DNA of 64,000 nt, from NCBI RefSeq assembly GCF_003790525.1, contig NZ_CP033635.1. One strand, written 5' to 3'. The notes under the pieces are model-generated. The model saw nothing but the letters and a program-made list of their open reading frames with translations, had not been told where the DNA came from and did not search any database. Source of the stretch: Escherichia coli (GTDB lineage Bacteria > Pseudomonadota > Gammaproteobacteria > Enterobacterales > Enterobacteriaceae). How positions within the stretch are numbered: the first letter of the stretch is position 1; each line of letters starts with the position of its first letter. Positions 5,545-48,014 of this stretch are shown piece by piece. The position numbers were made by a program, and so were the translations under genes.

Positions 5545-6857
<1,313 letters not shown>

Positions 6858-6898
6858 CCTGTACTCCATATGACAACCGCCCTGACGGGCGGTTGAAT

Positions 6899-7675
6899 TT
6901 ATTCTTCAGTTTTTTCGCTTTCTGCTTCAGCGTCGTTTTCCTCTTCCCGGTTTCGACCCTTACCAACGTAAAAGCGAGAGAAGAAGACACCGATTTCAAA
7001 CAGGCAGTACATCGGGATCGCCAGCAGCGTTTGCGAGAAGACATCCGGCGGCGTCAGCAACATCCCGACAACGAATGCACCAACCAGCACATACGGGCGT
7101 TTTTTGCGTAAGTCTTCTGGCGAGGTAATCCCCATCCAGCACAGCAGCACAATTGCCACAGGCACTTCAAAGGAGACACCAAACGCCATAAACAACGCCA
7201 TAACGAAGCTTAAATAGCTGGCGATGTCGGTGGATACCTGTACCCCTTCCGGCGCGGTATTGGCAAGGAAGCCAAATGCCAGCGGAAAGACCACAAAGTA
7301 GGCGAACGCCATGCCGATATAAAAAAGCAGAGAGCTGGAAACCAGCAGCGGCACCACCAGGCGACGTTCATGCTTATACAGCGCTGGGGCGATAAACGCC
7401 CACACCTGATAGAGAATCACCGGCGCTGACAGAATCAGCGACACCATAAAGGTCAGCTTGATCGGCGTAAAGAACGGCGAGGCCACGTCGGTGGCGATCA
7501 TCGTTGAACCTTGCGGCAACTGCTTGATCAATGGCGCGGATACCAGGTGATAGATGTCATTGGCGAAATAGACCAGACACAGGAATATCACGATCACCGC
7601 GATAATGCAGTTCAGCAGACGCTTACGCAGCTCAATCAGATGCGTGATAAGCGGTTGAGTATCTTCTACAGACAT
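6899..7675 (-). CDS. tatC: Twin-arginine translocase subunit TatC
   Basis: 258-aa polytopic membrane protein starting [21 protein letters not shown]. Confidence 0.97.
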
Positions 7676-7677
7676 GT

Positions 7678-8193
7678 TTACGGTTTATCACTCGACGAAG
7701 GGGAAGGTGCAGCGGTTTTCGGTTCAGCGTCCGCAGCAGGTTTTACCACCGGCTCTGGCGTGGTTTCTGGCTTCTGTTCCGGCGAACTGGCCTGCGTTTG
7801 TGCAGCGGCAGGCGTTACGCCTTCATGCGCAGCTTCATTGTCTTTCACCACCGGGTTATGGATGGTGTGCGCTTCATCGCTCGCCTTTTCAGGATCGTTT
7901 GCAACGTAGGAACGCTTCATCGACTCCGCGGCCTGGCGTAATTCATCCATCGACGCTTTCAGTTCGGGTGTCAGGTTAGTGAGGCTCGCCTTTTCAACCT
8001 TTTTCAGACTGTCCTGAAACTCCTGGAGTTTTAACTCCTGGGTCAGTTCGTTCTGCACCGTTGTCGCCAGTGAACGCAACGCGCGAATCCAGCCCGCGAC
8101 CGTTTTTACCGCCACAGGCAGTCGTTGCGGCCCCAGAACGACGAGGCCGATGATGAATACCAATAGCAGTTCGCTAAAACCGATATCAAACAC
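7678..8193 (-). CDS. tatB: Twin-arginine translocase subunit TatB
   Basis: 171 aa starting [26 protein letters not shown]. Sits 2 nt upstream of the tatC start. Confidence 0.97.
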
Positions 8194-8196
8194 GGA

Positions 8197-8466
8197 TTAC
8201 ACCTGCTCTTTATCGTGGCGCTTCGCGTCTTGTGTTTTAGCCTGTTCCTGATTCGTATCCGCCTGCTTATCGGCGATAGTTTTCGCAGTAAAATCAGCAT
8301 CCTGACTGGTTTTATCCTGCTTTGGTTCATCATCGCTCATTGCTTTTTTAAAGCCTTTGATCGACGCACCAAGATCGGAACCGATGGAGCCGAGCTTTTT
8401 GGTGCCAAAAAGCAGTACAACGATGACGGCAATAATCAATAACTGCCAAATACTGATACCACCCAT
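8197..8466 (-). CDS. tatA: Twin-arginine translocase subunit TatA
   Basis: The ORF-track entry (103 aa) over-extends. The Met at 8466 gives the 89-aa [27 protein letters not shown]... TatA. Confidence 0.95.
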
Positions 8467-8544
8467 ACATGTTCCTCTGTGGTAGATGATGATTAAACAA
8501 GGCCGCATTATACGTTACACAGCCCGCCTTGAGCGATGAAAAAA

Positions 8545-10787
<2,243 letters not shown>

Positions 10788-10800
10788 TTCCGGTCTCCTG

Positions 10801-11556
10801 TCAGAACTTATAACCACGATGCAACGCCACAACCCCTGCCGTCAGATTGTAGTAGTCGACACTTTCGAATCCGGCATCCTGCATCATGGCTTTCAGGGTA
10901 TCCTGATCGGGATGCATACGGATGGATTCTGCCAGATAACGGTAGCTGTCGGCGTCGTTCGCGACCAGTGAGCCAATACGCGGCAGCACATGGAAGGAGT
11001 ATGCATCATAGGCTTTGCTCAGCGGCTCGATAATTGGCTTCGAGAACTCAAGCACCAGCAGGCGGCCGCCGGGTTTCAGCACGCGATACATTGAACGCAG
11101 TGCTTTATCTTTGTCGGTGACGTTACGCAGACCAAACGAAATGGTGATGCAATCAAAGGTGTTATCCGGGAACGGCAGCGCCTCAGCGTTCGCTTGAACA
11201 TACTCAACGTTGCCAATCACACCGATATTACGCAGCTTCTCGCGTCCCATTTTGAGCATGGATTCATTGATATCAGCAAGGACCACTTTGCCAGTTTCTC
11301 CGACCAGGCGGGAGAATTTCGCTGTCAGGTCGCCGGTGCCACCAGCCAGATCCAGCACGGTCTGCCCACGGCGTACGCCGCTGCAATCAATCGTGAATCG
11401 CTTCCACAAACGATGAATACCGAATGACATCAAATCATTCATGACATCGTATTTTGATGCCACGGAATGGAAAACGTGAGCGACCATATCCGCTTTTTGT
11501 TCCTTCGCGACGGTCTGAAAACCAAAGTGCGTCGTTTCTTGTGACTTATCCACCAT
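10801..11556 (-). CDS. ubiE: Demethylmenaquinone / C-methyltransferase UbiE
   Basis: 251 aa with the SAM-binding motif [10 protein letters not shown]. Matches E. coli UbiE. Confidence 0.97.
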
Positions 11557-35958: not shown

Positions 35959-36579
35959 TCAACGCGAAATAATCAAATGAATGCCAAATCCGGCAAATAA
36001 CGCCCCGGCAAAACCATCAATCCACTTCGCCAGACGTTGATAACCACGGCGCATTTGCGGCAGGGCAAACAGGCTGGCAACGACGGTAAACCACGCCAGT
36101 GTTTCGATAATAATCAACGCGAAAATGCCCCAGCGCTCAGTGGTGCCGACGTTATCGCCGACAAACAGCGAGAATACCGAACCAAAGTAGATAATCGCTT
36201 TCGGATTGGCGAGATTGGTCAGTAAGCCTTTCAGGAAACTGCGCCCGCTTTTTGCCAGCTCAACCTGTGGTGCAGGCGCAGAAACCGCCTCTTTTTTCAG
36301 TGCACCGCGTAGCATCTGGTAACCCATCCAGCAGAGATACAGGCCACCGCCCACCATAATCAGCGTATGCAGCCAGGCCATTTTTTCGATAATCAAATGT
36401 AGGCCAAGCAACGCAATCCCAGCCCAAACCATTACGCCGCAGGTAATGCCCAGCACGCCCATCATCGCTTCTTTACGGGAACGACTGACAGCGGTCTGAG
36501 AGACAAAAAAGAAATCGGGACCGGGGCTCATAAGCGCCACAATGTGCACCATGGCGACGGTGAGGAATAACATCAACAT
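35959..36579 (-). CDS. rhtB: Homoserine/homoserine-lactone efflux protein RhtB
   Basis: 206 aa starting MLMLFLTVAMVHIVALMSPGPDFFFV. LysE/RhtB family. Confidence 0.95.
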   Translation of the reverse strand: MLMLFLTVAMVHIVALMSPGPDFFFVSQTAVSRSRKEAMMGVLGITCGVMVWAGIALLGLHLIIEKMAWLHTLIMVGGGLYLCWMGYQMLRGALKKEAVSAPAPQVELAKSGRSFLKGLLTNLANPKAIIYFGSVFSLFVGDNVGTTERWGIFALIIIETLAWFTVVASLFALPQMRRGYQRLAKWIDGFAGALFAGFGIHLIISR

Positions 36580-36642
36580 ACATTAGACTCGCGGGGGAAA
36601 CGTTTACGGAGTCTTCATCCTGGCACTTTTTTATGCTGCTGA

Positions 36643-38472
36643 CTACTCTTCGTCGTCACCATCGACATGCGCGCGGATAAGCGCCATAAACGGTTTACCA
36701 AAGCGTTCCAGCTTGCGCATCCCAACGCCGTTAACGCTGAGCATTTCGCTGGCGGTGATCGGCATCTGTTCAGCCATCTCAATCAAGGTTGCGTCGTTAA
36801 ACACCACGTACGGCGGGACATTGCTTTCATCGGCAATCGATTTACGCAGTTTGCGTAATTTGGCGAACAGTTTGCGATCATAGTTGCCGCCGAAGGATTT
36901 CTGCATCGCTTTCGGTTTGAGCGCCACGATACGCGGCACGGCAAGTTGCAAAGAGGATTCGCCGCGCAGCACCGGACGCGCAGCCTCTGTCAGTTGTAGG
37001 GCAGAATGCTGGGCAATATTTTGCGTCACCAGGCCGAGGTGAATCAGCTGGCGGATCACGCTCACCCAATGTTCATGGCTTTTATCACGGCCCATGCCAT
37101 AGACTTTCAGTTTGTCATGACCATAGTCGCGGATACGCTGATTATTAGCACCGCGAATAACTTCCACCACATAGCCCATCCCAAACCGCTGATTCACACG
37201 ACCAATGGTGGAAAGGGCAATCTGAGCATCGGTTGAACCATCGTATTGTTTCGGCGGATCGAGGCAGATATCGCAGTTCCCGCACGGCTCCTGCCGCCCT
37301 TCGCCAAAGTAGTTCAGCAGCACCAGACGACGGCAAGTTTGCGCTTCGGCAAACGCGCCCATCGCATTGAGTTTATGGCGCTCGATATCCTGCAATTGCC
37401 CCTGCGGCTTCTCTTCCAGACAACGGCGTAGCCACGCCATATCGGCCGGATCGTAAAACAGCATCGCTTCCGCGGGCAGGCCATCACGCCCGGCGCGACC
37501 GGTTTCCTGATAATAGGATTCGATATTGCGCGGAATATCAAAGTGGACCACGAAGCGGACGTTAGGCTTGTTGATGCCCATGCCAAACGCCACGGTCGCC
37601 ACCACAATTTGCAGGTCATCGCGCTGAAATTTTTCCTGCACGTCGGCGCGGACATTATTTTCCAGCCCGGCATGATAGGCCGCCGCGCTAATACCCTTGC
37701 TTTGCAGGCGCGCAGCGGTGTCTTCTACTTTCGCCCGGCTGTTGCAGTAGATAATGCCGGACTTACCGCGCTGTTCCTGCACGTAGCGCATCAACTGATC
37801 GAGCGGTTTGAACTTCTCCATCAGCATGTAGCGAATATTCGGACGATCAAAACTGCTGATTTGAATCAGCGGATCGTTCAGCCCCAGCAGGCGCACGATA
37901 TCCTGGCGCGTGGTGTCATCGGCTGTGGCAGTCAGCGCCATAAACGGCAGCGTCGGAAAACGCTGACGCAGCTGACCGAGGGCAGCGTATTCCGGGCGGA
38001 AATCGTGACCCCATTGGGAGATACAGTGCGCTTCATCAACGGCTAATAACACCGGATTCCAGTGCGCCAGATGCTCAAGAAAGTTATCCAGCATCAGGCG
38101 TTCCGGCGCGATATAAAGCAGGCGGATTTGCCCGGTGCGACAGCCTGTCATCACTTCAAGTTGCTGCTCGCGGGTTTGCGTCGAGTTAAGGCACACCGCC
38201 GCCACGCCGTTGGCTTGCAGTTGATCCACCTGATCTTTCATCAACGAAATCAGCGGTGAAACAACCACGGTAAGGCCGTTTAGCAATAAGGCAGGGATTT
38301 GATAGCAAAGGGATTTTCCGCCACCAGTGGGCATGACAACGAGGCAATCGCGGCCGGAAAGCACAGTGTCGATAATTTCTTCCTGGCCGGGGCGAAACTG
38401 TTGGTAGCCAAAGGTTTCTTGTAAAACCTGTTTAGCCCCGGACTCCAGATTCAACACTTCCGCCTGCGCCAC
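36643..38472 (-). CDS. recQ: ATP-dependent DNA helicase RecQ (GTG start)
   Basis: The helicase motifs are present ([19 protein letters not shown] and HRDC regions). There are two in-frame GTGs at 38478 and 38472. The K-12 609-aa form ([11 protein letters not shown]...) corresponds to 38472. Confidence 0.95.
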
Positions 38473-38490
38473 ATTCACCCCGATTGCCTG

Positions 38491-38521
38491 AAATAAAAAC
38501 AGGCGCTATTTTCAGCGCCTG
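38491..38521 (-). terminator. pldA Rho-independent terminator
   Basis: Minus-strand reading is CAGGCGCT-gaaaat-AGCGCCTG followed by TTTTTATTT. In plus coordinates the stem is 38500-38507 / 38514-38521 and the A-run is 38491-38499. Confidence 0.8.
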
Positions 38522-38596
38522 CGCGAGAAACTGCAATGCTTTTAGTCTCTGAGAGGGTAATCCTGGATGCTGGATTCCAGATTTGCCAACCATTCA

Positions 38597-39466
38597 TCAA
38601 AACAGGTCGTTTAGCATAACTCCCACACCAACGCGGGTCTGGTTGAAGTTATAGTCGATGAGCGATTCGCCATAGCCGCTGTAAACCTGAGTATAAAGGC
38701 GCACATGTTTGGTGATCGGGTAACTTAAGCCTAACTCCGCGCCGCCGTAGCCCGTGTTCCAGTTGTACTGTCCTTTCGCACTCAACACCGCATCACCGAG
38801 GTGATAGCCGATTTTAAGCTGGTAGTAACCCATATATTTGGTGATATCCGGGTTATCGTCAGTATTACCCACCACATACCACGGCTTCACCTCTACCAGC
38901 CAGTTACCGTTTTCTGCCATCAGGCGTGTATAAAGGCGGTTCCAGCTGCGGGAGGTCGGGTCTGAACGCCCGTTAGAGTCGTGGTTATAACCCATCTCCA
39001 CATCGCGCAGCGTCCAACCTGCAAAACGGTAATCGGTGGCAAAACCGAGGAACAATTGCGGTTCGTAGTTGGTTTCACGAAACGGTGAAGACTCTTCGCT
39101 ATTGGACAGTTGCCACCAGGATTTTTGCGTGTAAGACGCACCCAATACCGAGTTCGGGCCTAAAATCCCACGCCACAGCGGAAATGCCAGGCTCAACTGA
39201 AACTTTACTTCATCCTTACGCGCATTTTCCGCCCAGTCGTAACTGGCAATCGCTTCTTTATTCAGATCGCTGGTTTGGGTGTAGATGATGTAGTTGGTGT
39301 CATAAGGATAAAGGGTGAACGGATTGTCATGCTCCTGCAGCATATTGGCGATAATACTGCCACGCACCGCTGGCGCGTCATGCACCTCTTTCACCGTTGC
39401 CTCTTGTGCATATACTGCCATAGGCAACATAAACACCGGCAACAACCAGCCCTGCAGAGTCCGCAT
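38597..39466 (-). CDS. pldA: Outer-membrane phospholipase A PldA
   Basis: 289 aa with a signal peptide (…PMAVYA|QE) and the beta-barrel OMPLA sequence with the YNHDSNG active-site region. Confidence 0.97.
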   Translation of the reverse strand: MRTLQGWLLPVFMLPMAVYAQEATVKEVHDAPAVRGSIIANMLQEHDNPFTLYPYDTNYIIYTQTSDLNKEAIASYDWAENARKDEVKFQLSLAFPLWRGILGPNSVLGASYTQKSWWQLSNSEESSPFRETNYEPQLFLGFATDYRFAGWTLRDVEMGYNHDSNGRSDPTSRSWNRLYTRLMAENGNWLVEVKPWYVVGNTDDNPDITKYMGYYQLKIGYHLGDAVLSAKGQYNWNTGYGGAELGLSYPITKHVRLYTQVYSGYGESLIDYNFNQTRVGVGVMLNDLF

Positions 39467-39630
39467 CGCTCGTGTTCTCCGTAACGAATTATTGATAAGG
39501 TGAATATTTTTCTGCGGGCTATTTTACATACTTAACTCCATAGCCGTTAGTTATCCCTTCCTAAAGTAGAAATCAACAATAAAGAAGCATAAAATCAACA
39601 TTTCATTAACTAATGAAGTGTAAGGATGAT

Positions 39631-40098
39631 ATGTCTGCCGTACTGACCGCTGAACAAGCCCTGAAATTAGTGGGTGAGATGTTTGTTTATCACATGCCGT
39701 TTAACCGCGCATTGGGGATGGAACTGGAGCGTTACGAAAAAGAGTTCGCACAGCTGGCCTTTAAAAATCAGCCAATGATGGTGGGTAACTGGGCGCAAAG
39801 CATTTTGCACGGCGGGGTCATTGCGTCGGCGCTGGATGTCGCCGCCGGTCTGGTGTGCGTGGGAAGTACCTTAACCCGCCACGAAACCATCAGTGAAGAT
39901 GAACTACGCCAGCGGCTATCGCGGATGGGGACCATTGATCTTCGCGTCGATTATCTGCGCCCAGGCAGAGGCGAGCGTTTTACTGCTACCAGTAGCCTGT
40001 TACGTGCAGGCAATAAAGTCGCCGTCGCCCGCGTTGAATTACACAATGAAGAACAGCTTTATATTGCCAGTGCCACCGCCACCTATATGGTAGGTTGA
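39631..40098 (+). CDS. yigI: Hotdog-fold acyl-CoA thioesterase YigI
   Basis: The Met at 39631 ([18 protein letters not shown]...) gives 155 aa, as in K-12. PaaI/4HBT-like fold. Confidence 0.92.
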
Positions 40099-40149
40099 AG
40101 ACATAAAAGCAGGTAAACTGCTGTTACCAATTAAAAATGAGTATTCCCG

Positions 40150-41040
40150 ATGGATGCAAAACAAACGCGGCAGGGCGTATTACTCGCTCTTGCCGCTTAT
40201 TTTATTTGGGGTATTGCGCCAGCGTACTTCAAGCTGATTTACTACGTGCCCGCCGATGAGATCCTGACGCATCGCGTGATCTGGTCGTTTTTCTTTATGG
40301 TGGTGCTGATGAGCATTTGCCGCCAGTGGTCCTATTTAAAAACGCTGATTCAGACGCCACAGAAAATTTTTATGCTGGCAGTCTCTGCCGTGCTGATTGG
40401 TGGCAACTGGCTACTGTTTATCTGGGCGGTGAACAATCACCATATGCTGGAAGCGAGCCTTGGTTACTTTATTAACCCACTGGTGAACATTGTGCTGGGG
40501 ATGATTTTCCTCGGCGAGCGATTCCGCCGGATGCAATGGCTGGCGGTGATTCTGGCGATATGTGGCGTGTTGGTTCAGTTGTGGACTTTTGGTTCACTGC
40601 CGATTATCGCGCTGGGGCTGGCGTTTAGTTTTGCCTTCTACGGCCTGGTACGCAAGAAGATTGCTGTTGAAGCGCAAACCGGCATGTTAATCGAAACTAT
40701 GTGGTTGCTGCCCGTGGCGGCGATTTACCTGTTTGCTATTGCCGACAGCTCAACCAGCCATATGGGGCAAAACCCGATGTCGCTGAATTTACTGCTGATC
40801 GCCGCCGGTATTGTCACTACCGTACCGCTGTTGTGTTTTACTGCGGCTGCGACACGCCTGCGTCTCTCAACGTTAGGCTTTTTTCAGTACATTGGCCCGA
40901 CGCTGATGTTCCTGCTGGCTGTGACGTTTTATGGTGAAAAACCGGGTGCCGATAAGATGGTAACCTTCGCCTTTATTTGGGTGGCGCTGGCAATTTTTGT
41001 GATGGATGCGATTTATACGCAGCGTAGAACGTCCAAATAA
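40150..41040 (+). CDS. rarD: EamA/DMT-family membrane protein RarD
   Basis: 296 aa with 10 TM helices, starting MDAKQTRQGVLLALAAYFIWGIAPAYFK. Confidence 0.95.
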   Translation: MDAKQTRQGVLLALAAYFIWGIAPAYFKLIYYVPADEILTHRVIWSFFFMVVLMSICRQWSYLKTLIQTPQKIFMLAVSAVLIGGNWLLFIWAVNNHHMLEASLGYFINPLVNIVLGMIFLGERFRRMQWLAVILAICGVLVQLWTFGSLPIIALGLAFSFAFYGLVRKKIAVEAQTGMLIETMWLLPVAAIYLFAIADSSTSHMGQNPMSLNLLLIAAGIVTTVPLLCFTAAATRLRLSTLGFFQYIGPTLMFLLAVTFYGEKPGADKMVTFAFIWVALAIFVMDAIYTQRRTSK

Positions 41041-41055
41041 AAAATAAATATATTC

Positions 41056-41095
41056 TGAAAAAATATGCCGACTCTTGCATGAGAGTGGGCATATT
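41056..41095 (-). terminator. Orphan minus-strand Rho-independent terminator just after the rarD stop
   Basis: The stem is AATATGCCgACTCT (41062-41075) / AGAGTgGGCATATT (41082-41095), 13 bp with one G-G mismatch and a 6-nt loop. The only U-run lies on the minus-strand side (plus-strand AAAAAA at 41056-41061). Confidence 0.5.
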
Positions 41096-41349
41096 GCCAT
41101 GCTGACAGGAGACTCACATAAGGAAAGGCAGAATTTCCAGACGTCGTTGTATATTTTCATTTGCTTTAATAAATTTCATTTTTGGTAAATTCAGCATTAT
41201 GTTATTAGCGATGAGCAAGACCAATCATTAACCAAGTTCTCTTCAGAATGTAATGAAAAATGTGAAGTGCATTTCTTTTTTAAAATTTTTTACCCTATTA
41301 TTTCTTATCAAATTAACATTGCCCTTAATTATAAGAAAGGAGAATATAA

Positions 41350-42198
41350 ATGAACAACATATTAGGCTCATCAATTAATATGCCCTGTACACTTTTCGAA
41401 ACTATTACTTTATTCGATGATTTTTCTGCTGATGATATGCAGTATGGGGATATGGAAGAACAAGATTTTCTCTCACTCGGCTTAAGCGACATCTCTGCAA
41501 AAGTTGATCCTTACCGCCTCATTAAATACCATTTTCCTGGGCCGAATTCTACTTATGGTGCTTTTAGTGTTCCAACTTCTGGAACAAAAATATCACAAAG
41601 TGAATGTATTGATATTTTATTTGCAGAAATGAAAGATCTGGCAAAAATGTTTTCCTTTTTTGGACAATACAAAACACTCATCCAGGATCTGATTGATCAT
41701 TTTAGATATGGAAATGGCAACAGTTTCCATAGCCAGGAATTGAACTTATCTTTTCATGAACGAATAAACAAATATGATTATAATAGCCCAATACGTGTAA
41801 TCAAAGAATGTATCGAAAATGATATTTCTTCAACACCTACGATAGGATACCGGCCTCTTCTCCTACAAAAGATTAAGACCGAATTACTTTCATCAAGACT
41901 AAATAAATTCAATGATTTTAAAGATAATTTTAATGGCATGGGAATCAGCATTCATGATATCTCAGCTCAAAAAATATCTCTTTTAAATTTTCAAAAATAT
42001 CCTATGGGCTGGAGCGCTACCATTCATTTCATAGCACAAGACCACTTTGGTTTGGATGTGACTGATATAAAAAACAAGATTTACAACAAGTATAGATTTT
42101 TTCGCATATGGTTCTTTTTACAACGGCATAAAGACTTTGCTTTCAAACCTTTTTTCACCAATTTTAACACTATCGAAAGAATCGAAAATTATCTATGA
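41350..42198 (+). CDS. Hypothetical protein, probably DUF3289 family; no signal peptide
   Basis: 282-aa ORF in an AT-rich islet, with AAGGAG 7 nt upstream. The motifs FNGMGISIHD, QDHFGLD, FRFFRIWFFLQR and FKPFFTNF resemble DUF3289 proteins as I remember them (unverified). Confidence 0.7.
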   Translation: MNNILGSSINMPCTLFETITLFDDFSADDMQYGDMEEQDFLSLGLSDISAKVDPYRLIKYHFPGPNSTYGAFSVPTSGTKISQSECIDILFAEMKDLAKMFSFFGQYKTLIQDLIDHFRYGNGNSFHSQELNLSFHERINKYDYNSPIRVIKECIENDISSTPTIGYRPLLLQKIKTELLSSRLNKFNDFKDNFNGMGISIHDISAQKISLLNFQKYPMGWSATIHFIAQDHFGLDVTDIKNKIYNKYRFFRIWFFLQRHKDFAFKPFFTNFNTIERIENYL

Positions 42199-42692
42199 AA
42201 AGAAAACTCCAGAAAATTATATTATATTTATTTCTTCTATGCTGCATCTATAATTTATGGACATTGCGTCCTGTACAGATTTTGTATACATACTCTGATG
42301 CTGGCAATTCAGTCTTTCTGGTCGTTGATCATCTGCCATGGACTGACAGCGATAAAATAAATTGGTATCTGAAGCATCAGAATGAAATTAAAAATCAACA
42401 CCCCCTACCAGAAGGTAGTTGGCATACCTGGTATGTTATTGATATCGGTAATGGCTTCACTGACTATAAAAAATATATCGAAGGGCCGTATGAAGATCTC
42501 TACTGTTTCCCGACGATTAAGAGCAATGATAATTGCATCGTAAAAAACTATTTAATGGTTATTAATGAATATCCTTACCGTAATACTCATTTTTTTATTG
42601 CTGATAACAATGAGTATCAACTAACCCAGGAAAATAAGATAGAGCGAGTGTTCAACCCGCATGACTTTGAAAAAGACAATTTTCAGCAATAA
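42195..42692 (+). CDS. Hypothetical membrane-anchored protein, probably DUF943 family
   Basis: 165 aa. The ATG overlaps the upstream TGA (ATGA at 42195-42198). It has an N-terminal signal-anchor, KIILYLFLLCCIYNLWTL. LPWTDSDKINWYLKHQ resembles the DUF943 FPFTDKGKINWWLKN (from memory). Confidence 0.65.
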   Translation: MKRKLQKIILYLFLLCCIYNLWTLRPVQILYTYSDAGNSVFLVVDHLPWTDSDKINWYLKHQNEIKNQHPLPEGSWHTWYVIDIGNGFTDYKKYIEGPYEDLYCFPTIKSNDNCIVKNYLMVINEYPYRNTHFFIADNNEYQLTQENKIERVFNPHDFEKDNFQQ

Positions 42693-42720
42693 GCCGGATA
42701 AAGAACAATCTTTACCCGGC
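42693..42720. terminator. Stem-loop between the convergent DUF943-like gene and corA
   Basis: GCCGGaTAAAGA (42693-42704), loop ACAA, TCTTTAcCCGGC (42709-42720), with one A-C mismatch. Flanks are AT-rich on both sides. Confidence 0.55.
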
Positions 42721-42727
42721 ATTTATA

Positions 42728-43678
42728 TTACAACCAGTTCTTCCGCTTAAAGTACAGATACGGTGCCAGGCCCGCGAGGATCATAAAGATAATCGCGCCA
42801 GGGTAGCCGAAGCTCCACTTCAGTTCCGGCATAAACTCAAAGTTCATCCCGTAGCTGGAAGCGACCAGCGTCGGTGGCAGGAACACCACGGATACCACCG
42901 AGAAGATTTTGATGATGCGGTTCTGCTCGATATTGATAAAGCCCATCGCCGCCTGCATCAGGAAGTTCACCTTCTGGAACAGGGATTCGTTATGCGGCAG
43001 CAGGGATTCGATATCTCGCAGGATTTCACGCGCCTGCTCCAGTTGCCCACCCGGTAAGCGTGCTTTACGTACCAGGAAGTTGAGCGCGCGCTGGGTATCC
43101 ATCAGACACAGGCGAACTTTCCAGCCGATATCTTCCAGTTCCGCCAGCGTGGAGAGCGCCTCGTCGTACTCATCGCCCTGATGCCCTTCCATAATTACCC
43201 GGCTCAACTGCTCCAGGTCACTGTAGATATTTTCAATTTCATCCGCCAACTGTTCGATTTTGGTTTCGAACAGATCCAGCAACAGCTCGTAGGCGTTACC
43301 GTCCACCATCGACTGGCTACGGGCACGCATACGATACAGACGAAAAGCGGGCAGTTCACGCTCACGCAGAGTAAACAGACGACCATCACGAATGGTAAAT
43401 GCCACAGTGGAGTTACCGGCGTGATCTTCCGCATCTTCAAAGAAGAAGAAGGAGTGAATATGCAGGCCGTCATCGTCTTCAAAGAAACGTGCCGATGCTT
43501 CGATGTCTTCCAGTTCCGGGCGGGTTGCCAGGCTCTGGCCAAGTTCAGATTGTACGCGCAGTCGCTCGTCGTCGTCCGGTTCGACAAGATCAATCCATAC
43601 TGCATTTACAAGGGGTTGTGACTCTTCGACTTCCAGCCGGGTCAGTCGGTTATTTTCCAGTTGAAATGCGCTCAGCAT
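42728..43678 (-). CDS. corA: Magnesium/cobalt/nickel transporter CorA
   Basis: The Met at 43678 ([17 protein letters not shown]...) gives 316 aa. The YGMNF signature is present near the C-terminus. Confidence 0.97.
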
Positions 43679-44047: not shown

Positions 44048-44812
44048 ATGGCGCATCGGCTACTCATTGGTAAAGGAATGATCACCTTGAATCTCAAACG
44101 GATTTTTCTCACCTTCACCTTACTTCCCTTGTTTGCTGTTGCCGCTGATGATTGCGCACTCTCAGATCCGACGCTGACCGTACAGGCGTATACCGTTAAT
44201 CCTCAAACAGAGCGGGTGAAAATGTACTGGCAAAAAGCCAATGGCGAAGCGTGGGGAACGTTACATGCTCTGCTGGCGGATATGAATAGTCAGGGTCAGG
44301 TGCAGATGGCGATGAACGGCGGCATCTATGATGAAAGCTATGCGCCGCTCGGTTTGTACATCGAAAACGGTCAGCAGAAGGTGGCGTTAAATCTCGCTTC
44401 AGGTGAAGGGAATTTCTTTATTCGTCCTGGCGGCGTGTTTTATGTCGCGGGAGATAAAGTCGGCATCGTTCGTCTGGATGCCTTTAAAACCAGTAAAGAG
44501 ATTCAGTTTGCAGTGCAGTCAGGGCCAATGTTATTAGAAAACGGCGTAATTAATCCACGCATTCACCCGAATGTTGCCTCGCGTAAAATTCGTAACGGTG
44601 TAGGGATTAATAAACAAGGGAACGCCGTGTTTTTGTTGAGCCAGCAGGCGACAAATTTTTATGATTTTGCCTGCTATGCCAAAGCGAAACTGAACGTTGA
44701 GCAGCTGCTTTATCTTGATGGCACAATTTCACATATGTATATGAAAGGCTGGGCAATCCCGTGGCAACACTATCCTTTTGTTACCATGATTTCCGTCGAG
44801 TGGAAAGGTTAA
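44048..44812 (+). CDS. yigE: DUF2233-family periplasmic protein YigE
   Basis: 254-aa ORF matching the K-12 YigE length, with a hydrophobic signal-like segment (IFLTFTLLPLFAVA|AD). Confidence 0.85.
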   Translation: MAHRLLIGKGMITLNLKRIFLTFTLLPLFAVAADDCALSDPTLTVQAYTVNPQTERVKMYWQKANGEAWGTLHALLADMNSQGQVQMAMNGGIYDESYAPLGLYIENGQQKVALNLASGEGNFFIRPGGVFYVAGDKVGIVRLDAFKTSKEIQFAVQSGPMLLENGVINPRIHPNVASRKIRNGVGINKQGNAVFLLSQQATNFYDFACYAKAKLNVEQLLYLDGTISHMYMKGWAIPWQHYPFVTMISVEWKG

Positions 44813-44894
44813 GCATTGTACACTCGAGGAGGCCAGACAAACTGGGACTGGCTACACAGCTGGAAAATCATCAGATAAATGAAGGGAAACAAAA

Positions 44895-45797
44895 ATGAAA
44901 AAAAGGCTCGCAACGTTATTTTTATTAACGTGTCTGGGATCATCATCCGCCTATGCGGATAACGCTTTGATTTTACAAACTGATTTTAGCCTGAAAGATG
45001 GTGCCGTCTCGGCGATGAAAGGGGTCGCATTCGGCGTTGACCATAATCTTAAAATCTTTGATTTAACACACGAAATTCCACCGTATAACATCTGGGAAGG
45101 CGCTTATCGCCTGTATCAGACTGCCAGTTACTGGCCGCAAGGTTCGGTGTTTGTTAGCGTGGTCGATCCGGGCGTAGGCACTGACCGTAAATCGGTAGTG
45201 CTGAAAACCAAAAACGGTCAATACTTCGTTTCACCAGATAACGGTACGCTCACTTTGGTGGCACAAACTCTGGGTATTGATAGCGTCCGAGAAATCGACG
45301 AAAAAGCTAACCGCCTGAAAGGTTCTGAAAAGTCATATACCTTCCACGGTCGTGACGTGTATGCCTACACCGGTGCGCGTCTGGCTTCCGGGGCGATTAC
45401 GTTCGAACAGGTGGGGCCAGAGCTTCCTGCAAAAGTTGTCGAACTTTCTTATCAGAAAGCAAAAGCAACAAAAGGTGAAGTGAAGGGCAATATCCCGATT
45501 CTCGATATTCAGTACGGCAACGTCTGGAGCAATATCAGCGACGAGTTGCTGAATCAGGCAGGAATCAAACTCAACGACACGTTGTGTGTGACCATTTCCG
45601 AAGGTTCCCAGCAAAAATACGCAGGGAAAATGCCATATGTCGCAAGCTTCGGCGATGTGCCGGAAGGCCAGCCGATGGTGTATCTGAACAGCTTATTGAA
45701 TGTTTCCGTGGCGCTGAATATGGATAATTTTGCGCAGAAACATCAGGTTGCGTCTGGTGCTGACTGGAATATTGATGTGAAGAAGTGCGCTAAGTAA
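44895..45797 (+). CDS. SAM hydroxide adenosyltransferase / SAM hydrolase family (DUF62) protein with an N-terminal Sec signal peptide
   Basis: 300 aa. The signal peptide is MKKRLATLFLLTCLGSSSAYA|DN. The mature part carries DUF62 hallmarks: LQTDFSLKDGAVSAMKGV, DLTHEIPPYNI, VDPGVGTDRK, VSPDNGTLTLV. Confidence 0.8.
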   Translation: MKKRLATLFLLTCLGSSSAYADNALILQTDFSLKDGAVSAMKGVAFGVDHNLKIFDLTHEIPPYNIWEGAYRLYQTASYWPQGSVFVSVVDPGVGTDRKSVVLKTKNGQYFVSPDNGTLTLVAQTLGIDSVREIDEKANRLKGSEKSYTFHGRDVYAYTGARLASGAITFEQVGPELPAKVVELSYQKAKATKGEVKGNIPILDIQYGNVWSNISDELLNQAGIKLNDTLCVTISEGSQQKYAGKMPYVASFGDVPEGQPMVYLNSLLNVSVALNMDNFAQKHQVASGADWNIDVKKCAK

Positions 45798-45851
45798 GGT
45801 GCTGATGCCGAATGCGGTGTGGCGCACCGCATCCTGCAACGGAGTTGTAAA

Positions 45852-48014
45852 TTACACCGTCTCCAGTCGGGCATAAGCCGCCACCAGCCATTTAATACCC
45901 TGGCCCTGGAATGCCACCTGCAAACGGCTATGCTCGCCGCTGCCTTCCATATTGACGATGGTGCCTTCACCAAACTTAGCGTGGCGTACGCGCTGGCCGA
46001 GCTTGTAGCCGCTGTCGTTCTCGACCATCGGCGTACCCATCCGTTGATGGCTGACCGGGCGGCTTACCGTAGCGCGCAGGCGCACCTCTTCCACACACTC
46101 TTCCGGCAACTCACCGATAAAGCGCGACGGGCGATGGTAAACCTCTTTGCCATACAGACGGCGAGTTTCCGCGTAGGTCAGCGTCAGTTTCTGCATCGCG
46201 CGGGTTACGCCAACGTAGGCCAGACGGCGTTCTTCTTCCAGACGTCCGCCTTCATCCAGCGACATCTGGCTTGGGAACATGCCCTCTTCCATACCAACGA
46301 TAAACACCTGCGGGAACTCCAGGCCTTTCGCCGAGTGTAGCGTCATCAACTGCACCGCGTCCTGCCAGGTATCCGCCTGCCCCTCGCCCGCTTCCAGCGC
46401 CGCATGGGAGAGGAATGCCTGCAGCGGCATTAAATCTTCGTCTTCTTCGTTGTAGCTGAACTGGCGCGTTGCCGTCACCAGTTCCTCCAGGTTTTCGATA
46501 CGCGTCTGACCTTTTTCGCCCTTCTCCTGCTCGTACATGGTGCGCAAGCCGGAGTCTTTAATTACCCGGTCAGTCTGTACATGCAGCGGCATATCGGCAG
46601 TTTCCTGCGCTAAGGCGTCGATCAGCTCCATAAACCGCTGTAAGGCACTGGCAGCACGTCCGGCGAGGGCTTTTTCCTGCAACAGTTCACGACATGCCTG
46701 CCAGAGTGTTAACTGGCGATCACGCGATGTCTGACGTACCACGTCCAGCGTCCGGTCACCAATACCCCGCGTTGGTGTATTCACCACGCGCTCAAAGGCC
46801 GCGTCGTCATTACGGTTGGCAATCAGGCGCAGATACGAGAGCGCATCTTTGATTTCCTGGCGTTCGAAGAATCGCATCCCGCCGTAAATACGGTACGGCA
46901 TACTTGCCTGTAACAGTGCTTCTTCCAGCACACGCGACTGGGCGTTGCTGCGGTAGAGAATGGCGCACTCGGCAAGCGCCCCGCCGTTGTCCTGCCAGGT
47001 TTTGATACGGTTAACCACAAAACGCGCTTCATCGAGTTCGTTAAAAGCGCAATAGAGGGAAATAGGCTCACCATCCGCGCCATCGGTCCACAGTTTTTTA
47101 CCCAAACGCCCGTTGTTGTTTTCAATCAGGGCGTTCGCGGCGCTCAGAATATTGCTGGTAGAGCGGTAGTTCTGCTCCAGACGGATAGTTTCAGCACCGG
47201 GGAAATCATTGAGGAAACGCTGAATATTCTCCACCTGCGCTCCGCGCCAGCCGTAGATTGACTGATCGTCATCGCCAACGATCATCACTTTGCCGGTATC
47301 GCCCGCCAGCAGGCGGATCCACGCATACTGAATGTTGTTGGTATCCTGGAATTCGTCCACCAGGATATTGGTAAACCGTTCGCGATAGTGCTGAAGGATA
47401 TGCGGCTTGTTAAGCCACAACTCGTGAGCACGTAGCAGCAGCTCGGCGAAGTCCACCAGCCCCGCGCGGTCACACGCTTCCTGATACGCCTGATACACCT
47501 TCTGCCAGGTCTGCTCCACCGGATTACCGTAGCTTTGAATATGATGTGGACGCAGGCCTTCATCTTTCTGGCTGTTGATGTACCACATTGCCTGGCGCGG
47601 CGGCCACTGCTTCTCGTCGAGGTTCATCGCCTTGATTAGGCGTTTGAGCAGGCGTAGCTGGTCCTCGCTGTCGAGGATCTGAAAATCCTGCGGCAGATTG
47701 GCGTCCATATGGTGCGCACGCAGCAGACGGTGCGCCAGCCCGTGGAAGGTGCCGACCCACATGCCGCCCTGGCTGGTGCCCATCAGCTGCCCGATACGAT
47801 GACGCATCTCCGCCGCCGCTTTGTTGGTAAACGTTACCGCCATAATCGAGTATGGCGAGCAGTTTTCCACGCTCATCAGCCAGGCGATACGATGCACCAG
47901 TACGCGCGTCTTACCACTGCCCGCGCCCGCCAGCACCAGAAGGTTGCTGCGTGGCGCGGCCACCGCTTCGCGCTGTTTGTCATTAAGGCTGTCGAGCAGG
48001 TAAGAAACGTCCAT
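45852..48014 (-). CDS. uvrD: DNA helicase II UvrD
   Basis: The Met at 48014 (MDVSYLLDSLNDKQREAVAAP...) gives the canonical 720 aa. The 782-aa ORF-track form runs through the LexA box into yigB. Confidence 0.97.
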   Translation of the reverse strand: MDVSYLLDSLNDKQREAVAAPRSNLLVLAGAGSGKTRVLVHRIAWLMSVENCSPYSIMAVTFTNKAAAEMRHRIGQLMGTSQGGMWVGTFHGLAHRLLRAHHMDANLPQDFQILDSEDQLRLLKRLIKAMNLDEKQWPPRQAMWYINSQKDEGLRPHHIQSYGNPVEQTWQKVYQAYQEACDRAGLVDFAELLLRAHELWLNKPHILQHYRERFTNILVDEFQDTNNIQYAWIRLLAGDTGKVMIVGDDDQSIYGWRGAQVENIQRFLNDFPGAETIRLEQNYRSTSNILSAANALIENNNGRLGKKLWTDGADGEPISLYCAFNELDEARFVVNRIKTWQDNGGALAECAILYRSNAQSRVLEEALLQASMPYRIYGGMRFFERQEIKDALSYLRLIANRNDDAAFERVVNTPTRGIGDRTLDVVRQTSRDRQLTLWQACRELLQEKALAGRAASALQRFMELIDALAQETADMPLHVQTDRVIKDSGLRTMYEQEKGEKGQTRIENLEELVTATRQFSYNEEDEDLMPLQAFLSHAALEAGEGQADTWQDAVQLMTLHSAKGLEFPQVFIVGMEEGMFPSQMSLDEGGRLEEERRLAYVGVTRAMQKLTLTYAETRRLYGKEVYHRPSRFIGELPEECVEEVRLRATVSRPVSHQRMGTPMVENDSGYKLGQRVRHAKFGEGTIVNMEGSGEHSRLQVAFQGQGIKWLVAAYARLETV

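Follow-up and report, generated by a model that had tools for sequence, protein, structure and literature searches.

Two groups of described enzymes are closest to the protein considered here. The SAM hydroxide adenosyltransferases or (R)-SAM hydrolases of the DUF62 family (we compared PH0463, MJ1651, TTHA0338, T. maritima 2zbu, SaDUF62/StDUF62 and SaciSAMH) are cytoplasmic, start at the domain, and have housekeeping genes as genomic partners. The hydroxide adenosyltransferases convert SAM and water to adenosine and L-methionine, and form homotrimers whose active sites lie at the subunit interfaces. The halogenases SalL, ClA1/ClA2 and FlA have the same fold and carry out an SN2 displacement at C5' of SAM. 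The motifs PxNGL and IDxxFGN have been defined for the family (PMC4859513), and a water-activating Asp-Arg-His triad is specific to the hydrolases (PMC10491745, PMC4859513); the halogenases lack this triad and use Y70/G131 (SalL) or T80/S158 (FlA) (PMC4859513). The physiological role of the DUF62 hydrolases is debated, and could be (R)-SAM repair or something else (PMC12120602). In the literature searched we found no functional study of an exported DUF62 member.

The yigE–uvrD spacer in the 64,000-nucleotide window of Escherichia coli DNA analysed here occupies 44813..45851 and contains a single long open reading frame at 44895..45797 on the plus strand. This ORF is complete, running from ATG to TAA with a 300-aa product, and a Shine-Dalgarno-like GAAGGGA read from the sequence 7 nt 5' of the ATG (44881..44887, +) backs M1 as the start codon. 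The upstream gene yigE (44048..44812, +), which is separated from the ORF by 82 bp and is on the same strand, encodes a member of the NAGPA/DUF2233 phosphodiester glycosidase family with its own signal peptide (Pfam PF09992, RefSeq), and the downstream neighbour uvrD (45852..48014, minus strand; RefSeq annotation of a 99.9%-identical locus) is convergent, its stop lying 54 nt past that of the ORF. Promoter and terminator scans gave background levels, and because no terminator-like site was found between yigE and the ORF, the two may be co-transcribed in E. coli. No MetJ or PurR consensus was found anywhere in the window with up to three mismatches allowed. RefSeq already names the product a 'SAM hydrolase/SAM-dependent halogenase family protein'.

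The original prediction described the ORF as having a complete DUF62-type core, and this description holds. All of the motifs it quoted (TDFSLKDGAVSAMKGV, THEIPPYN, VDPGVGTDRK and SPDNGTLT) are present, and both domains of the DUF62/SAM_HAT superfamily (PF01887 + PF20257), the N-terminal alpha/beta and the C-terminal beta domain, are full-length with scores far above chance. SAM_HAT_N spans residues 26–174 (44970..45416, +; E 3.6e-53, 179.7 bits against a cut-off of 26.3, profile 2–145 of 145) and SAM_HAT_C spans residues 198–291 (45486..45767, +; E 2.2e-18, 66.8 bits against 25.5, profile 1–83 of 84). An AF2 monomer model (pLDDT 87.9) has 2zbu, SalL, ClA1, PH0463 and FlA as its top Foldseek matches, with TM scores of 0.82–0.85 to DUF62, SalL and ClA1 structures (2zbu, E 6e-29, TM 0.84), and sequence matches in the PDB include 2zbu (E 1.3e-43), SalL (E 1e-35, ~30% identity) and PH0463.

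The catalytic Asp/Arg/His triad, whose conservation the original prediction had singled out for checking, is intact. Asp91 (45165–45167), Arg98 (45186–45188) and His151 (45345–45347), all on the plus strand within SAM_HAT_N, are spaced by 7 and 53 residues, compared with 7 and 52 for D68/R75/H127 of PH0463, and they are conserved in 78/78, 78/78 and 76/78 exported homologues respectively (100/100/97%). The adenosine-binding set is also present: the ribose-binding Asp30 (44982–44984, +; FlA D16) and the PxNGL motif P114-D-N-G-T-L119 (+) within SAM_HAT_N, and L203-D-I-Q-Y-G-N209 (LDxxYGN) within SAM_HAT_C, where N209 corresponds to FlA N215. Among the 78 exported homologues D30, P114, N116, G117, D204 and G208 are invariant (100%), and N209 is retained in at least 97%. 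The protein has in common with the DUF62 hydrolases the two-domain fold, the triad, the ribose-binding Asp, PxNGL and (I/L)DxxFGN.

An affinity to fluorinases and chlorinases, also raised originally, does not survive this comparison, because the halogenase-type residues are missing. The D/R/H positions align with Y/T/Y in SalL and ClA1, the TIGR04507 fluorinase profile gives 83.9 bits against a cut-off of 400, and there is no biosynthetic gene cluster around the gene; the triad residues and the profile score rule out a halogenase, and identify the enzyme type, as judged by sequence, as a hydroxide-adenosyltransferase. Neither of the (R)-SAM hydrolase equivalogs is reached (NF058624, 131.5 bits against 350; NF053629, 116.9 against 470), so that the protein is a relative of these and not itself an equivalog. 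As the scores are so far under the cut-offs, its substrate or stereo-preference may differ from that of the (R)-SAM hydrolases.

The clearest departure from the known hydrolases is at the N-terminus, where residues 1–21 (MKKRLATLFLLTCLGSSSAYA, followed by DN; 44895..44957, +) form a predicted cleavable Sec signal peptide with n/h/c architecture and cleavage before D22. Applying signal-peptide criteria by hand (a positive n-region, an h-region of 7–15 residues, and small residues at -3/-1), we read MKKR, LATLFLLTCLG and SSSAYA before D, in agreement with the SPase I rule, with a net charge of +3, an 11-residue hydrophobic core, A-x-A at -3/-1, and a best 10-residue Kyte-Doolittle mean of 2.47. 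Solved family members start at the equivalents of residues 24–28, so the protein is about 21–23 residues longer at this end, and in the AF2 model residues 2–14 are a low-confidence helix apart from the fold that begins at residue 24. The textbook Sec signal that was originally described is thus canonical in form. It is not a peculiarity of E. coli. When the closest homologues were collected from 80 species-level loci, all 78 full-length sequences had a hydrophobic signal-like extension, kept in kind although not in sequence across at least five phyla, and this extension defines a large clade. The 150 nearest cluster representatives at 50% identity include 104 full-length sequences, 14 of which are unclassifiable for the extension; it is found in 56 of the 90 classifiable sequences, and 34 are without it. 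These counts point to a large and undescribed exported DUF62 branch with the E. coli protein as one member, and the conserved signal-type N-terminus suggests that the 300-aa protein is itself exported.

The characterised enzymes being cytoplasmic, we considered whether this could be an ordinary (R)-SAM repair hydrolase of the cytoplasm, with an extension that does not work as a signal or with a wrongly assigned start codon, but we regard this as highly improbable. The next and sole internal Met, M41, is downstream of the invariant Asp30, and a start there would delete a ligand-binding strand; the internal start that the original prediction named as a risk is thereby excluded. The Shine-Dalgarno sequence ahead of M1 and the universality of the extension among the 78 homologues also argue against it, as does the presence in some relatives of lipobox-type signals in place of SPase I-type ones. 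A lipoprotein reading was rejected for E. coli. In the candidate LLTC, Thr occupies position -1 and the Cys, which relatives do not conserve, is preceded by only 12 residues; this poor match favours the SPase I site. Additional candidate support for export comes from Cys231 (45585–45587) and Cys298 (45786–45788), a putative periplasmic disulfide pair spanning 45585..45788 (+) that is particular to the clade and not a feature of the DUF62 hydrolases. The pair is found in all 20 sequences of the proteobacterial subclade and in none of the 58 others; because it is confined to one clade, this covariation counts as a single evolutionary event.

The genomic partners of the exported clade also differ from the housekeeping neighbours of the cytoplasmic enzymes. 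A TonB-dependent receptor gene is directly beside the gene in about 19 of 80 species-level loci from three or four phyla. In 14 loci the receptor gene is immediately upstream and co-directional, with gaps of 15–125 bp; in two more it is downstream, and in two it is one gene removed. These loci come from Gammaproteobacteria, Bacteroidota, Balneolaceae and Verrucomicrobiota. The gammaproteobacterial and Bacteroidota receptors are 30–38% identical over their full length (E 1e-105 to 1e-157), whereas the best E to any solved receptor is 1e-25; by these comparisons they constitute one uncharacterised orthologous subfamily. Four loci have an APC amino-acid permease adjoining the gene or close to it, and at two of these loci (L062 and L074) the permease lies between receptor and enzyme; in four Verrucomicrobiota loci an NCS2 purine permease and an 8-oxoguanine-deaminase-type amidohydrolase flank the gene. 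No riboswitch was found 5' of any receptor-enzyme pair; L062 has a SAM-I riboswitch directly downstream, together with an ORF of 1220 aa. SAM had been treated in the original prediction as strictly cytoplasmic, but this is an assumption, and the synteny of an exported enzyme with outer-membrane importers speaks for the existence of a substrate outside the cell.

The interpretation we favour, with a probability of roughly 0.5, is that the protein is a periplasmic SAM hydrolase, Sec-exported and SPase I-processed, that scavenges adenosine and methionine. It draws on the observed family membership, intact catalytic and ligand-binding motifs, signal-type N-terminus, purifying selection and importer synteny. 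After export and processing, this DUF62 or SAM hydroxide adenosyltransferase-type enzyme would use water activated by Asp91-Arg98-His151 to attack an adenosyl-sulfonium compound, bound by Asp30 and Asn209, at its C5'. We infer that the substrate is most likely S-adenosylmethionine that has reached the periplasm, yielding adenosine and L-methionine, and that the physiological role is nutrient scavenging, to which both the importer-linked branch and a core relative in Helicobacter pylori (see below) point. SAM is not known to be taken up across the E. coli cytoplasmic membrane, whereas the cell already has transporters that import nucleosides such as adenosine, and methionine. The exported enzyme is coupled in many other bacteria to a dedicated TonB-dependent importer and to amino-acid or purine permeases. 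We found no transporter neighbour in E. coli, H. pylori, Pasteurellaceae, Aeromonas or Edwardsiella, and for the stand-alone gene in the first four of these, diffusion through porins would presumably supply the substrate. The enterobacterial periplasmic scavenging hydrolases UshA, CpdB, AphA and PhoA, together with TonB-receptor-linked processing enzymes, may follow the same proposed logic, by which a non-transportable precursor would be cleaved in the periplasm to a transportable nucleoside and amino acid, although UshA, CpdB, AphA and PhoA have other folds and hydrolyse phosphoesters rather than cleaving a C5'-S sulfonium bond. An exported branch with importers and permeases would represent a second, extracytoplasmic role for DUF62 proteins, which is unmentioned in the literature searched, and would mean that bacteria exploit SAM, or adenosyl-sulfonium compounds related to it, from outside the cell.

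The same receptors raise the question of whether SAM is the ligand, as TonB-dependent receptors mostly carry scarce or bulky compounds and this subfamily is uncharacterised. The enzyme could be a periplasmic hydrolase of another adenosyl compound delivered by the receptor, such as adenosylcobalamin, decarboxylated SAM, an adenosyl-bearing natural product or a siderophore-like conjugate, with SAM only an in vitro model substrate. The low equivalog scores are compatible with this, as is the C-terminal segment, where NSLxxxSxALNxxxFA is unlike DSAGFLEIAVN (DSxGxLEIAVN) of the cytoplasmic hydrolase 2zbu and resembles the LNxxxF segment of SalL (NSRGRLALGLNQSNF), minus the SalL Arg. We nonetheless consider it unlikely, given that the adjoining permeases transport amino acids and purines, which correspond exactly to the two halves of SAM, and that the adenosine-binding and water-activating residues are unchanged. 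Adenosylcobalamin in particular was rejected: the receptor is not BtuB-like (64–77 bits against cut-offs of 600–836), and no cobalamin riboswitch was found in 23 loci.

H. pylori HP0709/jhp0648 (UniProt O25413) is an orthologue of the E. coli protein, with 300 aa aligned free of gaps, 89–91% amino-acid identity and 83% nucleotide identity. This near-identical relative and the TonB-receptor synteny are the most informative facts about the gene, and the original prediction overlooked both. HP0709 resembles the E. coli protein in type of signal peptide, Cys pair, triad and purifying selection; its N-terminal LSAC resembles a lipobox, yet is just as short as the E. coli LLTC. Its locus (uvrA-omp-rsmH-HP0708-HP0709-homA) differs from that of E. 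coli, and it is core in H. pylori, whereas the E. coli gene is present in only 44% of genomes. HP0709 is richer in GC (44.5%) than its neighbours (33–41%), whereas the E. coli gene is poorer (47.4% against 53–57%). HP0709 probably came from an enterobacterium. Such a cross-class gene transfer would link enterobacteria and H. pylori, both of the human gut. A 'Helicobacter phage' match proved to be a prophage record running on into chromosomal uvrA...homA. HP0709 is called 'adenosyl-chloride synthase' in a gastric-cancer GWAS paper, and it and its relatives are listed in databases as 'acetolactate synthase'; neither name suits the sequence, so that a core gene, serological marker and GWAS hit bears misleading names.

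These medical associations invite the suggestion that the protein is a host-directed factor, freed in vesicles or by lysis, that makes immunosuppressive adenosine or depletes mucosal host SAM. HP0709 has been reported in H. pylori outer-membrane vesicles and as a serum antigen, with antibody levels that vary with gastric lesion stage, and a bacterial GWAS has linked a non-synonymous SNP, D49N, to gastric cancer; the nearest relatives are mainly animal-associated (Pasteurellaceae, Edwardsiella, Aeromonas, Cardiobacteriaceae and Leptotrichia). We note, however, that ribosomal proteins too occur in vesicle proteomes, which makes vesicle detection weak evidence of export, that position 49 is neither catalytic nor conserved among exported homologues (the neighbouring V48 is conserved), and that a GWAS association is not a mechanism. 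Secretion-system linkage is absent, and most of the exported clade belongs to Bacteroidota and Verrucomicrobiota that live free in soil and water and show transporter synteny. A host-directed role is therefore very improbable.

Nutrient scavenging would suit the biology of H. pylori, which requires methionine. H. pylori is also auxotrophic for purines and depends on their salvage (PMC13328217, PMC13280913). A broader and more tentative proposal, which we hold to be possible rather than probable, is that the exported DUF62 enzyme and its dedicated receptor subfamily make up an unrecognised multi-phylum pathway harvesting extracellular SAM, possibly its biologically dead (R)-sulfonium epimer, to supply purine and methionine together. 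On this view the E. coli gene and HP0709 would belong to the pathway as stand-alone members, and an Escherichia-like enterobacterium would have been the donor of HP0709, which then became fixed in a pathogen auxotrophic for both products. Both HP0709 and an orphan gene of ~44% of E. coli genomes would thereby gain a candidate function.

Within E. coli, 2413 of 5426 complete genomes (~44%) carry the gene, as a single copy in all but one, and it is located between yigE and uvrD in each of six loci inspected; on these grounds it is a common polymorphism and not a rarity. The values of dN/dS are 0.045–0.09 in each of E. coli and H. pylori and also in the comparison of the two species, showing strong purifying selection and a function that is kept. 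A patchy distribution is typical of accessory defence traits, and the original prediction listed SAM analogues and nucleoside antibiotics among the candidate substrates. The protein could then be a defence enzyme that breaks down toxic SAM analogues or 5'-activated nucleoside antibiotics while they are still in the periplasm, a location that suits pre-emptive detoxification. We consider this improbable. Resistance, toxin or biosynthetic genes adjoin the gene in no locus, the PADLOC defence-system models gave no family at E ≤ 0.01, linkage to importers and nutrient permeases is the opposite of what a detoxifier needs, and the gene is core and under purifying selection in H. pylori.

The original prediction also suggested that the product works with YigE. 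K-12 has yigE without the gene, and no yigE homologue is near the gene in 79 other loci, so that the linkage is not kept elsewhere and we reject a conserved functional pair. Its description of the gene as inserted fares no better. E. coli alleles have dS of 0.12–0.22, matching the flanking core genes uvrD (0.12–0.20) and corA, and an Edwardsiella copy that is 73% identical lies in the same rhtC-recQ-pldA-rarD-corA block. The search for plasmid-borne members of the exported clade gave no genuine case, the E. coli PLSDB 'plasmid' matches being 4.9-Mb chromosomes, and with no genuine plasmid or phage copy we reject a recent insertion or a mobile element; the one exceptional E. coli genome has the gene in two places, one on a plasmid record. 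Long residence fits these data better than insertion, and K-12 probably lost the gene. Strains of O157:H7 and B carry the gene, and its absence from K-12 is as the original prediction stated: in MG1655 uvrD ends at 4000145 and yigE at 4000292, with no annotated gene in the 146-bp gap. The uvrD junction of the gene-positive locus was also aligned to K-12, and the MG1655 gap contains a REP-like palindrome.

The complete yigE-uvrD spacer of the window (44813..45851) lies between yigE upstream (44048..44812, + strand) and uvrD downstream (45852..48014, - strand), and its sole long ORF is the DUF62 gene (44895..45797, + strand; 300 aa), with a Shine-Dalgarno-like GAAGGGA 7 nt 5' of the ATG. The product matches Pfam SAM_HAT_N (E 3.6e-53) and SAM_HAT_C (E 2.2e-18) over their full lengths, and its N-terminus, MKKRLATLFLLTCLGSSSAYA followed by DN, is laid out like a Sec/signal peptidase I signal in charge, hydrophobic core and A-x-A, which confirms the original observation of an exported-type DUF62 ORF at this position. 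In structure-sequence alignments the solved family members all begin at the equivalent of query residues 24–28, showing that the 21–23 additional residues are genuine and specific. An internal start giving a cytoplasmic protein had been considered, but the next Met, M41, is downstream of the invariant Asp30 and such a start is excluded. An AlphaFold2 model of the 300-aa protein (pLDDT 87.9) has residues 2–14 as a detached, low-confidence helix, with confident folding starting at residue 24. Many H. pylori alleles (including P0048 and P0104) have a lipobox-like L-S-A-C at residues 10–13, the Cys being preceded by only 12 residues, and the E. coli counterpart is L-L-T-C. Signal peptidase I cleavage after residue 21 seems more likely than lipoprotein processing, because the lipobox-type Cys of E. 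coli and H. pylori is not kept in Pasteurellaceae, Aeromonas or Edwardsiella.

We examined the N-termini of relatives in two samples. The first comprised the closest 150 representatives of 50%-identity clusters. Approximately full-length sequences numbered 104: a hydrophobic stretch extends the N-terminus in 56 (with lipoboxes in some), no extension is present in 34, and 14 are unclassifiable. A rough NJ tree places the sequences with signals in several large groups, the query lying within one of these. The second, scanning one genome per species, gave 80 loci and 78 full-length proteins, and all 78 carry a signal-like extension whose sequence is unconserved. Judged from these sequences, the predicted export signal is a hallmark of a clade; the alternative of a cytoplasmic enzyme with a spurious signal is contradicted by the extension's conservation, and we regard it as most improbable. 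Cys231 (codon 45585-45587) and Cys298 (codon 45786-45788) occur together in 20/20 sequences of the proteobacterial subclade and in 0/58 others, a pattern that amounts to a single evolutionary event and fits a candidate periplasmic disulfide, which would be sensible only outside the cytoplasm.

DUF62 hydrolases (hydroxide adenosyltransferases) use an Asp-Arg-His triad, D68/R75/H127 in PH0463, whereas the halogenases lack it and have Y70/G131 (SalL) or T80/S158 (FlA) instead (PMC10491745, PMC4859513). The triad, whose conservation had been left to be checked, is intact in the query as D91, R98 and H151, spaced as in PH0463; pairwise alignments place Y/T/Y at these positions in the chlorinases SalL and ClA1. 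Asp30 and Asn209 correspond to D16 and N215 of the fluorinase FlA, the PxNGL and LDxxYGN motifs are both found, and all sequence criteria place the query in the DUF62/SAM_HAT superfamily and its hydrolase branch. A Foldseek search with the AlphaFold2 model returned only DUF62, SalL, ClA and FlA structures (TM 0.76–0.85, normalised to target length). The query scores far under the NCBIfam cut-offs for fluorinase and two (R)-SAM hydrolase equivalogs; it is thus hydrolase-type in its residues yet no equivalog of any characterised enzyme. Assignment as a halogenase was rejected on both residues and model scores. The protein thus differs from the (R)-SAM hydrolases, of which it is no equivalog, and from the SAM-dependent halogenases; what is new relative to known DUF62 enzymes is its compartment and its partners, and we found no mention in the searchable literature of the exported clade, the receptor synteny or the E. 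coli-H. pylori orthology.

Clustering of neighbouring ORFs across the 80 loci identified a single widely recurrent partner, a TonB-dependent receptor with Plug and barrel domains. The receptor gene immediately precedes the DUF62 gene in the same orientation, at distances of 15–125 bp, in Gammaproteobacteria (L025, L027), in Bacteroidota and Balneolaceae (L036, L042, L047, L050, L051, L059, L069, L071, L078, L084) and in Verrucomicrobiota (L037, L048); it is 3' in L066, 3' but on the opposite strand in L054, and one gene away in L062 and L074. Gammaproteobacterial and Bacteroidota receptors are 30–38% identical over ~850 residues (E 1e-105 to 1e-157), their best match among solved receptors is 1e-25 in the plug domain only, and they reach no NCBIfam subfamily cut-off; these two sets constitute one specific, uncharacterised subfamily, from which the Verrucomicrobiota receptor is distinct. 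An APC-family amino-acid permease adjoins or lies near the DUF62 gene in four loci (L062, L067, L071, L074), between receptor and enzyme in L062 and L074. In four Verrucomicrobiota loci the flanking genes encode an NCS2 xanthine/purine permease and an amidohydrolase scoring above the 8-oxoguanine deaminase cut-off. In the Bacteroidales MAG locus L062 the receptor/permease/DUF62 cluster is immediately followed by a SAM-I riboswitch (7098-7207, 71.7 bits) and a 1220-aa ORF of methionine-synthase size (7313-10975). We read the recurrent partners as an importer in the outer membrane together with amino-acid or purine carriers in the inner membrane, matching the two halves of SAM. Detoxification of SAM-like antibiotics is decidedly unlikely, as it has no supporting gene context and the linkage to importers speaks against it. 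In host-associated Gammaproteobacteria and H. pylori the DUF62 gene is solitary, surrounded by unrelated housekeeping genes. Only one Aeromonas locus (A. rivipollensis L018, 6989-8971) has a gene for the alkaline phosphatase PhoX, another periplasmic scavenging enzyme, 110 bp 3' of the DUF62 gene and in the same orientation.

The analysis shows catalytic apparatus of the DUF62 hydrolase type, an N-terminus of signal type, purifying selection, and synteny with importers and permeases, and the query is very probably an exported, catalytically competent DUF62 hydrolase-type protein. We propose that it would be exported by Sec and cleaved after A21, that in the periplasm it would hydrolyse SAM or a closely related adenosyl-sulfonium compound, yielding adenosine and methionine, and that these products would then be taken up by the cell's own nucleoside and methionine transporters; we give this whole chain a probability of roughly 0.5. 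The E. coli inner membrane is not known to import SAM. Hydrolysis of a different imported adenosyl substrate is a rather unlikely alternative. A SAM-splitting enzyme would also serve H. pylori, because this organism requires methionine and is a purine auxotroph. The purine auxotrophy is on record (PMC13328217, PMC13280913).

Outside Escherichia/Shigella, the best-matching proteins come from H. pylori and H. acinonychis; they are exactly 300 aa long and 89–91% identical, and a single 90% cluster contains 2579 sequences. The Helicobacter locus order, uvrA-omp-rsmH-HP0708-gene-homA, identifies the gene as HP0709/jhp0648. The E. coli (window 44895-45797) and H. pylori (6001-6903 of loci L003 and L006-L011) genes have 83% nucleotide identity without gaps, 64% at third codon positions, with dS ~1.0 and dN/dS ~0.045. 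In the tree their alleles form sister groups nested among Gammaproteobacteria, and the next relatives, in Pasteurellaceae, Edwardsiella and Aeromonas, reach 68–75%; the parsimonious reading implied by this pattern is transfer from an Escherichia-like enterobacterium to the H. pylori/H. acinonychis lineage. The best 80 loci include no further Helicobacter species. The H. pylori copy has 44.5% GC (GC3 0.49) among neighbours of 33–41%, and its site adjoins a known prophage-integration hotspot (PMC11321410). The record PQ159899.1 ("Helicobacter phage Pt11444_1", L091) contains phage genes plus uvrA, OMP, rsmH/mraW, HP0708, HP0709 and homA, and because these are ordinary chromosomal genes the record extends beyond the prophage.

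HP0709 has been seen in published OMV proteomes and is a published serum antigen, and its D49N SNP is gastric-cancer-associated in a published bacterial GWAS; the literature searched yielded no functional study. Of the names in use for HP0709 and its relatives, neither the GWAS paper's "adenosyl-chloride synthase" nor the "acetolactate synthase" of databases fits the sequence. Host-directed adenosine production is hinted at in H. pylori only and, the clade being mostly environmental, we consider it very unlikely.

Among complete E. coli genomes the gene is present in 2413/5426, as a single copy in all but one, and occupies the yigE-uvrD position in 6/6 inspected loci. The expectation that K-12 has nothing here was borne out, MG1655 having a mere 146-bp uvrD-yigE gap (L001 7147-7292) with a REP-like palindrome, GCCGGATGCGGCGTAAACGCCCTATCCGGCCTAC; the deletion/insertion boundaries fall immediately past the stop of yigE and just ahead of the uvrD terminator region, which is shared. 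Pairwise dS between five E. coli alleles is 0.12–0.22 (uvrD 0.12–0.20, corA 0.02–0.19), with dN/dS of 0.05–0.09. The Edwardsiella piscicida copy, 73% identical, is between rhtC(-like) and recQ in the same rhtC-recQ-pldA-rarD-corA block (L016 5183-12800; window 35962-43636), at a different intergenic site ~8 kb away, and its identity is within the 66–89% of neighbouring orthologues. Since dS equals that of the flanking genes and the Edwardsiella copy is in the same block, we prefer a history of long vertical residence within Enterobacterales, in which the gene was lost repeatedly (also in the K-12 lineage), to one of recent insertion. No other Escherichia or Salmonella species representative is among the best 80 loci.

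The copy in E. coli strain HS-02 (L086 4915-5772) is a frameshifted pseudogene with an internal stop and an apparent identity of just 82%; because yigF at this locus is interrupted by a stop too, assembly errors seem likelier than decay. The PLSDB "plasmid" records NZ_CP134663.1 and NZ_CP141089.1 (H21, H22) are 4.9 Mb and actually E. coli chromosomes, and the lone "plasmid" location in the E. coli genome search may also be a mislabelled chromosome. GC is low in yigE (46.9%) and the DUF62 gene (47.4%), with GC3 ~0.50 for both, and is 53–57% in flanking corA, uvrD, yigB and xerC (GC3 0.61–0.69). At window 41350-42692, DUF3289 (YPO3983 family, 282 aa) and DUF943 (165 aa) genes with overlapping stop/start codons, 33–34% GC and no PADLOC match replace yigG/yigF, which are found between rarD and corA in K-12 and some other strains; this pair constitutes an alternative cassette that varies independently of the DUF62 polymorphism.
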